From assembly GCF_054482525.1 (NCBI RefSeq), contig NZ_CM137006.1: 64,000 nt of DNA. One strand, given 5' to 3'. The translations under genes and the position numbers were made by a program. A model generated the notes under the pieces. That model was not told the origin of the DNA. It searched no databases and saw only the letters and a list, made by a program, of their open reading frames with translations. Below, in pieces: positions 30,759-49,306 of the stretch (the stretch's first letter is position 1; every line of letters begins with the position of its first letter).

Positions 30759-31607
30759 ATGGCGACATACCTTATTGGCGACGTTCATGGTTGTTACGAT
30801 GAACTGATCGCATTGCTGCATAAAGTAGAATTTACCCCTGGGAAAGATACCCTCTGGCTGACGGGCGATCTGGTCGCGCGCGGCCCCGGTTCGCTGGATG
30901 TTCTGCGCTATGTGAAATCCTTAGGCGACAGCGTACGTCTGGTGCTGGGCAATCACGATCTGCATCTGCTGGCGGTATTTGCCGGGATAAGCCGCAATAA
31001 ACCGAAAGATCGCCTGACACCGCTGCTGGAAGCGCCGGATGCCGACGAGCTGCTTAACTGGCTGCGTCGCCAGCCTCTGCTGCAAATCGACGAAGAGAAA
31101 AAGCTGGTGATGGCCCACGCCGGGATCACGCCACAGTGGGATCTGCAGACCGCCAAAGAGTGCGCGCGCGATGTAGAAGCGGTGCTGTCGAGTGACTCCT
31201 ATCCCTTCTTTCTTGATGCCATGTACGGCGATATGCCAAATAACTGGTCACCGGAATTGCGGGGGCTAGGAAGACTGCGGTTTATCACCAACGCCTTTAC
31301 CCGGATGCGTTTTTGCTTCCCGAACGGGCAACTGGATATGTACAGCAAAGAATCGCCAGAAGAAGCCCCTGCCCCACTGAAACCGTGGTTTGCGATTCCT
31401 GGCCCTGTCGCTGAAGAATACAGCATCGCCTTTGGTCACTGGGCATCGCTGGAAGGCAAAGGTACGCCGGAAGGTATTTACGCGCTGGATACTGGCTGCT
31501 GCTGGGGTGGTACATTAACCTGCCTGCGCTGGGAAGATAAACAGTATTTTGTCCAGCCGTCGAACCGGCATAAGGATATGGGCGAAGGAGAGGCGGTCGC
31601 GTCTTAA
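30759..31607 (+). CDS. apaH: Bis(5'-nucleosyl)-tetraphosphatase (symmetrical) ApaH
   Basis: 282 aa [46 protein letters not shown]..., metallophosphatase motifs. Confidence 0.95.
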
Positions 31608-31918
31608 ATCCCGTCGAGCATAAAATCTAATGCCCCTTTAATCAACGTTCGGTGCGCGCTGGCATCGCAAAATTTCGTTCCCAGCGCGTTAACTGGAACA
31701 GTTGCAGTCTCATGCGTCATGAGCACATATTCTTTGCCATCTACCAGTAAAAGGATTGTGTTAAGCCGTTCTGGAGGGCGAATACGGATAAATCGTTCAA
31801 TAGGTGTTAATGGAATAACAATACTGCGATTAATCTCACCAATAATGTCGCTGGTAACATCGATAACAAAGGGAAACGCGGCGTTCCTGCCGCGACTGCG
31901 GTATACCGTAAATTGCAT
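31604..31918 (-). CDS. ccdB: CcdB-family toxin (gyrase poison), chromosomal homologue
   Basis: 104 aa [40 protein letters not shown]...FMLDGI aligns with plasmid F CcdB (MQFKVY...DVQSDII...VIPL...WGI); stop overlaps the apaH stop by 4 nt. Confidence 0.85.
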
Positions 31919-31920
31919 CG

Positions 31921-32154
31921 CTAGAAGCTCCGGTACTCATCAGAGAAACATCCGGTTTCATCAGCCAATTGATTTAACGCAGCGATAGCTTCTGCGTTCT
32001 CTTCACGCCAACGTGTTGCTGCATGTTTTTTAAGTTCAGCATTGAGCGCAACCGTAAGGGTGGCGCTCATATTTAAGCCTGCATCACGAGCGCGATTGAC
32101 TAACTCACGGTCGACGGTGACGGTCACACTTTGTGTGGTACGTTTTGCAGTCAT
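31921..32154 (-). CDS. ccdA: CcdA-family antitoxin
   Basis: 77 aa ORF MTAKRTTQSVTVTVDRELVNRARDAGLNMSATLTVALNAELKKHAATRWREENAEAIAAL... resembles F CcdA; 2-nt gap to ccdB. Confidence 0.85.
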   Translation of the reverse strand: MTAKRTTQSVTVTVDRELVNRARDAGLNMSATLTVALNAELKKHAATRWREENAEAIAALNQLADETGCFSDEYRSF

Positions 32155-32239
32155 GATATCGTGCTCCTGTACAATTTATACGTCTAGTAAACACGGATAT
32201 CTGCACGTATCAGTGATGCCGGAATTCTAATATACAAAC

Positions 32240-34765
<2,526 letters not shown>

Positions 34766-35296: not shown

Positions 35297-35403
35297 AGGT
35301 AGCCCGCGTGATTACGCCTTTGTTTTCCCACAAAGTGTAGTCATATATTCACGCAGCTTATAGTCAATAATATTGATTCAGAAAAGAGAGAAATCTGAAC
35401 AAA

Positions 35404-36735
35404 TTACTCCATTCTCTGCCCGCGGATCGTCATATTGCTGGTCTGCGCCAGTGACATCCCTCGAGTCTCCGGGGCAAACGCTACGGAAATCAACAAGCCA
35501 AACAGCGAGATACCCGCCCCCATTAACATCGTGTTACTGATACCGTAATTATTGATAAAGATCGGCAGTGCCCAGGTCGAAACAATGGTGCCAATACGAC
35601 TTAAGGACATAATCACGCCCACGGCAGAGGCGCGGATATCCGTCGGGAAGAGTTCATTAGGATAGAGCCACTGCAAATTACCCGGCCCGCCAGAGAAAAA
35701 GGCATATACCGCAAAGGCCATCACTACCAGCCAGATCCCCATATCCGGGATCAGCCCCAAAACTGCCAGCGCCAGCGTCATCATGGCAAAGCTGCCAATC
35801 AACAATGGACGCCGTCCGGCAGTGTTTAACCACAGCATCGGTGGAATACAGCCGAGCATAAAGAACAGGCTAATCACCACGTTCCCCAGTGCCGCGTTTT
35901 TGCCAACACCCAATCCCAACAAACCAACGATTTGCGGGCCAAAGGTGTAGATGGCGAACATCGGGATCACCTGGCAGGTCCAGATGGCGGCAACAAACAG
36001 AACAAAAGGAAAATGGCGGCGATTAAACAGATCGCGAAAACGGGTTTGCTGCGGCTGCTCTTCATCGAAAGCCACCGGTTCGCCAAACAGTTTGATCATC
36101 ATCTCTTCGCACTCTTTTACTCGCCCTTTGCGTAACAACCAGCGGGGAGATTCAGGCAGTTCGAATCGACCAATCAAAATCAACAAACAGGGGATCGCTG
36201 CGCTACCCAGCATCCAGCGCCAACCACCTTCCACATCATAAAGCCAGTAACCGACCAGATCGGCGCAGGTCGCGCCGACATACCACATCGCGGCAATAAA
36301 GCTGATGGAAAACGCCCGCTGACGGGTACTGGAGAACTCAGTGATCATCGAAGTGGCGATGGGATAATCTGCACCGATGACAATGCCGATGAGTACCCGC
36401 ATCACTAACAGTTCGACGGGGGATGAGACAAACATCGTCGCCACCGATATCACGCCGATGGCGATGATATCGATGAGGAACATTTTGCGCCGTCCGACTT
36501 TATCGGAGATATAGCCAAACAGCGATGTGCCAACGAACAGCCCGGCGAGCGTTCCCGCGCCCAGCAAGCCAATCCAGTCAGCGTCCAGTTTCAGCGCCGG
36601 AGTCAGTTGCTCCAGCGCCACGCCAATCATTACCAGTACATAACCATCCAGAAACGGACCACCGCTTCCCCACAGCAAAATGCGGCGGTGAATAGAAGAG
36701 AATTTAAGATCGTCAAAGTTTCTGGACGGTTGCAT
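35404..36735 (-). CDS. yaaU: MFS-family transporter
   Basis: 443 aa polytopic ORF; position between kefF and fixX. Confidence 0.85.
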   Translation of the reverse strand: MQPSRNFDDLKFSSIHRRILLWGSGGPFLDGYVLVMIGVALEQLTPALKLDADWIGLLGAGTLAGLFVGTSLFGYISDKVGRRKMFLIDIIAIGVISVATMFVSSPVELLVMRVLIGIVIGADYPIATSMITEFSSTRQRAFSISFIAAMWYVGATCADLVGYWLYDVEGGWRWMLGSAAIPCLLILIGRFELPESPRWLLRKGRVKECEEMMIKLFGEPVAFDEEQPQQTRFRDLFNRRHFPFVLFVAAIWTCQVIPMFAIYTFGPQIVGLLGLGVGKNAALGNVVISLFFMLGCIPPMLWLNTAGRRPLLIGSFAMMTLALAVLGLIPDMGIWLVVMAFAVYAFFSGGPGNLQWLYPNELFPTDIRASAVGVIMSLSRIGTIVSTWALPIFINNYGISNTMLMGAGISLFGLLISVAFAPETRGMSLAQTSNMTIRGQRME

Positions 36736-47759: not shown

Positions 47760-48737
<978 letters not shown>

Positions 48738-49306
48738 AGGAGATGCTCCTGCATGGCTTTCAGATATGCATTTTCTGCGCGAAGATAACGCAGCTCATTC
48801 TTCATCTCTTCCGGCGTCATGTTTGCCTCGTTTTCATGGGTATCATCAGAACGGGTCATGCTTTTCTCCTTCCTGCGCCTGATAAAGGCCTCATTACCAG
48901 ATTTGCGGTAGCCTTTTATCCAGTTTTTAACCGTGTTGTGGCTGGGAATGTTAAACCGGGCAGCTACCCGGGGTAGAGACTCAGAATGCCCGAGAGCATA
49001 AAGAACCACGCAAAGTTTATCTTCAGGAGAATAGCTACGCTTGTGTCTGCAATCCAGTGCCCGAGGACCGTGAAGAAGAAAAAGATTAATCCAGTGTGAG
49101 AGGCTGGTGTGAGAAAGTTGAAAGAGTTTTGCCGTAGAAATGATGCCTGCATGACCAGCCAGGTAGTGATTTACAGCGGCAAGTTTTACTTCAAATGAAT
49201 GTTTCATAAACTGCACCTTCAGATGTCAGATTATGTCCAACATTTGGGGTGCAGTTCACCAGCATCGCATCCGGCGATCAGGTCGCACGGTATCAACGAG
49301 ATAAAA

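Follow-up and report, generated by a model that had tools for sequence, protein, structure and literature searches.

In the 64,000-nucleotide stretch of contig NZ_CM137006.1 (RefSeq assembly GCF_054482525.1; the whole stretch is referred to as the window), two small minus-strand genes, ccdA and ccdB, encoding proteins of 77 and 104 residues, respectively, are located between the convergent genes apaH and folA and read in the direction of folA. The antitoxin gene comes first on the common strand and its stop codon is separated by a gap of 2 nt from the ATG of ccdB, which is the layout of a type II toxin-antitoxin module; the stop codons of ccdB and apaH, on opposite strands, share 4 nt (31604–31607). 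Both open reading frames (ORFs) and this overlap had been placed by the original prediction, made from the sequence alone, exactly where the ORF listing has them. The locus is identified as a chromosomal toxin-antitoxin islet of the ccdO157 type, i.e. an insert of about 620 bp that replaces a repetitive extragenic palindromic (REP) spacer, in a copy that stands late in the known decay of this islet (probability about 0.9). No evidence contradicting the identification as a ccdO157 islet was encountered.

The profile hidden Markov model (HMM) search that had been proposed as a check for both ORFs resulted in full-length matches: the 104-residue product corresponded to Pfam CcdB (PF01845; E-value 9.1e-29, residues 2–103 on model positions 1–101 of 101) and the 77-residue product to Pfam CcdA (PF07362; E-value 1.5e-26, residues 8–77 on model positions 2–71 of 71). 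Among the solved structures, the toxin was matched best by CcdB of Vibrio fischeri (E-value 2.7e-15), with F-plasmid CcdB at 6e-9 and both matches running end to end, and the antitoxin was matched by F CcdA (2adl; E-value 9e-6), in agreement with the predicted nature of the smaller protein. The likeness of the larger protein to F CcdB, which had been noted by eye, was borne out by the alignment with F CcdB, since the motifs MQFxVY, DVxSDII and VIPL as well as the C-terminal GI were all recovered. The reading as chance ORFs or a mis-called feature, which has nothing but the small size of the genes in its favor, is of negligible probability: it is refuted by the Pfam matches (full length, E-values of 1e-26 to 1e-28) and by those to solved structures, and it would have to account for the annotation of the genes by the NCBI Prokaryotic Genome Annotation Pipeline in thousands of genomes and for an O157 copy that has been characterized experimentally. 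Both proteins scored below the cut-offs of the NCBIfam equivalog models for the F plasmid (CcdB: 54 bits versus 147, NF010262; CcdA: 38.6 bits versus 100, NF010264) and, judged by these scores, are members of the CcdB and CcdA families but not F-type orthologues; the RefSeq names "CcdB family protein" and "CcdA family antitoxin" are due to the same shortfall. Residues invariant between the window CcdA, F CcdA and two plasmid CcdA proteins were Q8, T11, T13, N28, S30, E40, A46, W49, N53, E55, G68, F70, D72 and E73. Neither CcdA nor CcdB was matched by the defence-system protein models of PADLOC-DB, and a role in anti-phage defence is thus unsupported.

The module shares its position between folA and apaH, its gene order and its spacing with ccdO157 of Escherichia coli O157:H7, the DNA being 98.4% identical in O157 genomes. 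Indeed, strain Sakai harbors ECs_0052 and ECs_0053 at the same place, in line with the original prediction; the window CcdA is 100% identical to ECs_0052, and CcdB is 95% identical to its O157 counterpart, from which it differs at five positions (G10, E28, S32, I44 and T54 in the window versus S10, V28, R32, S44 and P54 in O157). A further difference is the upstream single-nucleotide polymorphism (SNP) at 32190 (TATACT in O157, TTTACT in the window). The alternative spacer states of ccdO157 (REP only; larger insert with ccdA remnant) were found as well. The F-plasmid ccdAB module has the same two families, gene order and gene sizes, and F CcdA shares the RW..EN.E motif and the G-F-D-E of the tail with the window CcdA; however, the identities to the window proteins are only 35% (CcdB) and 28% (CcdA), N95 and W99 of F CcdB are replaced by Asp, a 113-bp operator stands against the 85-bp leader of the window, and the F module is plasmid-borne whereas the window module is chromosomal. 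The chromosomal CcdB of V. fischeri (PDB 2kmt, 3jrz and others) likewise lacks Trp at the F-W99 position, where it carries Thr, and has the IPLTPIE stretch in common with the window CcdB, but belongs to another species and genomic context and is of moderate identity.

A group of plasmid-borne modules with a 104-residue toxin (here termed DGI-type) agrees with the window module in CcdB length, in the LDG[IV] C-terminus and in the gene spacing of 2–3 nt; these toxins always have R32 and almost always P54. Their CcdB proteins are 57–72% and their CcdA proteins 62–66% identical to those of the window, and the C-terminal toxin-binding end of CcdA, ETGCFSDEYRSF, is identical or nearly so. The DGI-type modules adjoin replication and partition genes, and their upstream region is only patchily similar to that of the window. 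In PLSDB, the true plasmid CcdB proteins closest to that of the window came from Hafnia alvei, with 72% identity, and from Klebsiella aerogenes, with 69%, followed at about 58% by those on small IncFII plasmids from Enterobacter, Citrobacter and Salmonella; thousands of F-type CcdB copies in this database were less than 60% identical to the window protein. A homologue with 90% identity was present in Escherichia albertii.

The full insert was detected in 2,021 of 5,426 complete E. coli genomes (37%), where it was always chromosomal, single-copy and 95–100% identical; no E. coli plasmid in this set carried the module. In K-12 MG1655, the 77 bp that separate apaH from folA hold a REP-like palindrome and no ccd ORFs, which agrees with the short K-12 spacer of the original prediction; homology between the window and K-12 ends right after the apaH stop codon and restarts about 10 bp before the folA stop codon. 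The comparison of the spacer across genomes, which had been suggested as well, revealed two further states: in STEC316 (L002 6309–7733), a DUF4291 gene and a hypothetical gene are accompanied by a 45-residue ccdA remnant, and in strain 2017-02-2CC (L013 3001–3774), a 72-nt remnant of the ccdB 3' end lies beside a gene annotated as "IS1096 element passenger TnpR family". As these two spacer types hold other genes together with a remnant of ccdA or ccdB, the islet has been partly overwritten at least twice. The observed states match the ones credited to Mine et al. (2009), who are cited in passages of PMC7167474, PMC7232551, PMC3184786 and PMC2654758 for a plastic folA-apaH spacer and a decaying ccdO157. 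The islet is thus a known accessory module rather than a new one, as had been supposed (Mine et al. 2009 and Wilbaux et al. 2007, via PMC7167474, PMC7232551 and PMC5543033). A search of its ends for direct repeats or target-site duplications gave none, and its G+C content is mildly lower than that of the flanks (about 0.46 versus about 0.52–0.55); a plasmid origin is plausible. The PLSDB record CP054241.1 (834 kb, 95% identical) was rejected as an instance of plasmid carriage, since apaH lies beneath the match and the record is almost certainly a piece of chromosome that was filed as an E. coli plasmid; records of this kind would inflate "plasmid-borne" counts of chromosomal genes.

Table 1. 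Features of the ccdAB islet and its flanks (positions of the window)
Feature	Position	Strand	Basis
ccdB, 104-residue CcdB-family toxin gene, frame open	31604..31918	-	ORF listing (ATG start), Pfam PF01845; WP_001160967.1 "CcdB family protein" in PCN033
ccdA, 77-residue CcdA-family antitoxin gene, N-terminal DNA-binding part and C-terminal toxin-binding tail	31921..32154	-	ORF listing (ATG start), Pfam PF07362; WP_000125566.1 in PCN033
Islet, approximate extent, DNA without K-12 counterpart	31608..32229	.	Alignment with K-12 MG1655
Leader, 85 bp, folA stop to ccdA start; presumed promoter/operator region	32155..32239	-	Sequence reading
TTTACT hexamer; TATACT, a -10-like hexamer, in O157 Sakai and most carriers (SNP at 32190)	32186..32191	-	Consensus scan, allele comparison
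AGGAG ribosome-binding site, 9 nt before ccdA ATG	32164..32168	-	Read from sequence
GGAG within ccdA 3' end, 9 nt before ccdB ATG	31928..31931	-	Read from sequence
apaH, core-genome flank	30759..31607	+	ORF listing, PCN033 annotation
folA, core-genome flank, co-directional with ccdAB, directly upstream	32240..32719	-	Extent mapped from PCN033 annotation

According to two independent reviews (PMC5543033, PMC7354431), which agree in their account of Wilbaux et al. (2007), CcdB-O157 targets DNA gyrase and CcdA-O157 is degraded by Lon, F CcdA neutralizes CcdB-O157 whereas CcdA-O157 does not neutralize F CcdB, and the chromosomal module neither stabilizes an unstable plasmid nor causes post-segregational killing. 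Gyrase poisoning that is relieved by GyrA R462C and by CcdA is reported in PMC5543033 for the 95%-identical O157 allele; the same source cites Gupta (2017) for a lower toxicity and a five-fold lower gyrase affinity of CcdB-O157 compared with F CcdB and for a contribution of ccdO157 to persister formation. The opposite direction of cross-protection, i.e. a chromosomal CcdA that protects against F CcdB, is given in PMC10886550 and is treated here as an error of that review. Since the window CcdA has the same amino acid sequence as the Sakai protein, the published antitoxin properties transfer directly to it. The question whether this antitoxin neutralizes F CcdB, which the original prediction had considered beyond judgement by eye, is therefore answered in the negative to the extent that the two reviews are correct on CcdA-O157. 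By homology and on the basis of the published O157 work, the window CcdB would be a small dimer whose binding to GyrA leaves gyrase trapped on cleaved DNA; the disordered C-terminal tail of CcdA would bind and neutralize it, Lon would degrade CcdA, and the CcdA-CcdB complex would repress the operon through the N-terminal DNA-binding domain of CcdA.

Both genes would lie on one transcript that starts at the module's own weak promoter, and probably also on transcripts that run on from folA; such read-through is likely because a scan of the 85-bp leader for terminator-like sites after folA found none. The position of a GGAG motif inside the ccdA 3' end together with the 2-nt gap suggests translational coupling of ccdA and ccdB. 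In the leader of O157 Sakai, a consensus scan revealed a promoter-like CTGATA-16-TATACT, whereas the same kind of scan yielded no sigma-70 consensus match in the window leader; the SNP at 32190 is the sole difference behind this match and also breaks a perfect GTATAC. The F ccd operator comprises GTATAC core palindromes at a spacing of about 12 bp (PMC5389731), and a by-eye comparison with it identified short GTAT-type and GATATC elements about 10–12 bp apart in the window leader. The mere presence of GTATAC carries no weight, since six copies occur in the 64,000 nt of the window versus 5.6 expected. The SNP as a derived promoter-down or operator mutation is kept only as a lead, as outgroup plasmids disagree at this position. 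A GC-rich hairpin with a T-rich run on the minus strand (31894–31877, codons 9–19 of ccdB) was flagged as terminator-like; as an attenuator that lowers toxin expression it was discarded, its folding energy (−11.7 kcal/mol; z = −1.0 versus shuffled sequences) being probably a chance value. The O157 allele, in which the G10S substitution weakens this hairpin, lacks it.

The gyrase-binding site of F CcdB has been defined by saturation mutagenesis as Q2, F3, Y6, S22, I24, N95, W99, G100 and I101 (PMC5062330). Seven of these nine contacts are kept in the window CcdB (Q2, F3, Y6, S23, I25, G103 and I104); the equivalents of N95 and W99 are Asp (D98 and D102), the same two residues as in the O157 protein, which targets gyrase. 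With respect to the retention of the gyrase-poisoning residues, which had been left undecided in the original prediction, the alignment with F CcdB thus documents contacts kept to the same extent as in O157, but function does not follow from sequence. An Asp at a contact position has been flagged as possibly compromising (PMC7232551). In an alignment of the CcdB family (131 full-length representatives from a search of 1.84 billion proteins; residue counts are out of 132), position 98 was Asp in 126 sequences and G103 was invariant in 130, while the F-W99 position was occupied by Thr (50), Gln (27), Ser (13) or Asp (11), so that Trp is a peculiarity of the F type. All 21 full-length members of the closer 104-residue subfamily end in DG[I/V/F], with Asp universal at both the N95 and the W99 position; because of this and of the family majority at D98, the flagged Asp is, by this comparison, the normal state of the subfamily.

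Beyond what the original prediction had considered, two of the five positions at which the window CcdB deviates from the tested O157 protein are near-invariant in the family. The differences were polarized with eleven alleles (window, Sakai and nine other E. coli alleles picked across the identity range), of which the consensus corresponds to WP_001160966.1, the type of Nissle 1917: G10S and E28V occur in O157 only, whereas R32S, S44I and P54T are derived in the window lineage. R32 (F R31) is Arg in 115 of the 132 representatives of the family and in all 21 members of the subfamily, and P54 (F P52) is Pro in 127; neither Ser at the former nor Thr at the latter position occurred a single time. 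Position 44, on the contrary, is variable in the family. It aligns with F S43, one of the residues that contribute most to CcdA binding (bioRxiv 10.1101/2022.02.21.481196), but since the CcdA partner residue F E54 is Ala in CcdA-O157, this inference does not transfer cleanly. Scored with an HMM built from the family alignment, the window allele lost 9.0 bits relative to the consensus allele, compared with 1.9 bits for the toxic O157 allele (G10S, E28V); R32S alone accounted for 3.6 bits and P54T alone for 3.9 bits, and the control substitution G103A at an invariant position for 3.6 bits.

Disruption of ccdB by nonsense, frameshift or truncation was observed in seven of the eleven sampled alleles (C84* and a 13-bp deletion twice each; R42*, G95* and a +1 frameshift once each), while ccdA was intact in all of them; after extension to 14 inspected alleles, the figures were 9/14 disrupted for ccdB and 14/14 intact for ccdA. 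The G95* lesion, found in ST131 genomes, removes the last ten CcdB residues including the G-I end with its gyrase contacts. Lesions were counted in the 5,426 genomes with 31-mer queries in which any 28-base seed covers the variant: 413 genomes had G95*, 259 the 13-bp deletion, 118 C84* and 4 R42*. As a lower bound from these four lesions, in a database biased towards clinical clones, at least 794 of the 2,021 carriers (39%) thus possess an obviously broken ccdB. The S32 variant occurred in 47 genomes, and a ccdB identical to that of the window in only three (PCN033, SCU-102 and 19KM1776). Of the S32 carriers listed, 37 of 40 fell outside the 99% identity band; the two that were translated, CFSAN061763 and 746, combined R11S with the 13-bp deletion, and two more belonged to the deletion-length class. 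Strain C4 carries S44I and P54T together with R32 in an open ccdB frame. The alleles would accordingly be arranged, from sequence comparison, in a series that leads from the consensus via S44I/P54T and R32S (window) to the frameshift; the exact order depends on a tree, because the 13-bp deletion is also found on R32 backgrounds.

The window copy is therefore read as a late, intermediate stage of the decay already known for the module, in which a working antitoxin would be accompanied by a toxin with attenuated activity at best and possibly none. This reading follows from the three extra substitutions and from the haplotype, which almost always comes with a disrupted ccdB: the TTTACT variant was present in 398 genomes, which approximates the sum of 259 genomes with the 13-bp deletion, 118 with C84*, 17 of the C4 type and 3 of the window type and suggests, as a lead, that the TTTACT carriers constitute one clade with about 95% of the ccdB copies broken. 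Several points weigh on the other side. The clade arithmetic presupposes TTTACT in every deletion and C84* allele, which was confirmed in only six genomes; the disagreement of the plasmid outgroups at 32190 leaves the polarity of the SNP ambiguous, and the promoter difference is a consensus match only. The ccdB frame is uninterrupted, and every gyrase-contact residue is as in the active O157 protein. In the F protein, R31 is salt-bridged to D19 and D23, yet its substitutions are well tolerated, and substitutions of the buried P52 are tolerated to 41% at the lowest and to 100% at the highest expression level (PMC5062330); given this tolerance, neither R32S nor P54T need abolish toxicity. Overall, residual toxicity of the window allele is given roughly even odds.

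The same open frames, contacts and tolerance at high expression of the F-equivalent changes would also be compatible with a fully functional module, whose CcdB would be as active as the O157 protein and would aid antibiotic tolerance (persisters) or the stress response. Good ribosome-binding sites precede both genes, the persister formation quoted above for ccdO157 points in this direction, and ccdB of NRG857c, at an identical locus, was strongly up-regulated under bile salts (PMC7232551). This explanation is considered possible, although it falls short of being probable: the new residues at positions 32 and 54 are without precedent among the family representatives, the HMM penalty exceeds that of O157 by far, and the closest alleles are mostly disrupted. 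The loss of ccdB in at least 39% of the carriers likewise speaks against the toxin being of conserved benefit and fits the decay attributed to Mine et al. (2009).

The asymmetry between the two genes could, on the other hand, indicate that the toxin is dead by missense and the locus an orphan antitoxin gene, with ccdA perhaps selected as an anti-addiction factor against ccd plasmids of the same subfamily. Such an explanation could draw on the uniformly intact ccdA alleles, on the SNP density among the eleven alleles (about 1.7% in ccdA versus about 6.3% in ccdB), on the existence of plasmid relatives in H. alvei, K. aerogenes and IncFII plasmids whose CcdA ends are identical or nearly so, and on the chromosomal ccd of Erwinia, for which anti-addiction against F ccd has been demonstrated (Saavedra De Bast 2008, in the form in which it is cited). 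It nevertheless appears unlikely. The asymmetry is expected anyway, since ccdA cannot be lost before ccdB dies; that none of five independent disabling events falls in ccdA would be only mildly surprising if both genes were hit equally often (about 0.06), three of the four ccdA SNPs are nonsynonymous and give no sign of strong purifying selection, and a ccdA remnant state exists in STEC316. Moreover, CcdA-O157 does not neutralize F CcdB according to the review passages mentioned before (PMC5543033, PMC7354431). The narrower combination, in which ccdB is a missense-attenuated toxin in mid-decay and ccdA is kept by selection against addiction by DGI-type ccd plasmids with their ETGCFSDEYRSF tails, is regarded as rather improbable, and selective retention of the antitoxin against same-subfamily plasmids is altogether unlikely on present evidence.

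With regard to the surroundings of the islet, a 1.2-kb query across the locus was 100% identical to E. coli PCN033, and nine positions differed over 49.6 kb. The apaH gene contains a 6-nt insertion (GGAGAG, 31587–31592) near its 3' end relative to K-12, with the result of a C-terminus GEGEAVAS instead of GEAAAS and a length of 282 versus 280 residues; as the same 849-nt apaH is present in STEC316, a strain without ccdB, the insertion is not tied to the ccd islet. The gene yaaU (35341–36735), encoding a transporter of the major facilitator superfamily, is a pseudogene with an internal stop codon according to the annotation of the near-identical PCN033, which also places IS1397 (IS3 family, with a programmed-frameshift transposase; 47859–49207) between caiF and caiE. 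Another small accessory insert in the otherwise core region consists of espY1, a type III secretion effector gene, and an adjoining transposase fragment (22536–23507) between djlA and rluA; espX1 begins at about 63629, at the far end of the window.

The ccdAB islet of the window is real, already known and ordinary: the islet itself, its locus, the gyrase target, the one-way cross-talk with F ccd and the decay across E. coli were published between 2007 and 2009. What is added here is descriptive, namely how often the islet and four lesions that disable ccdB occur in present-day genomes, which extends the known picture of decay. The window copy is a rare allele with an open frame, found in three genomes and substituted at two near-invariant positions of the family; the annotation as "CcdB family protein" is correct, but should not be taken to mean that this allele is toxic. 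Together with the consensus, the S44I/P54T allele and the frameshifted alleles, the R32S allele of the window belongs to a natural set for asking at which point a chromosomal toxin dies.

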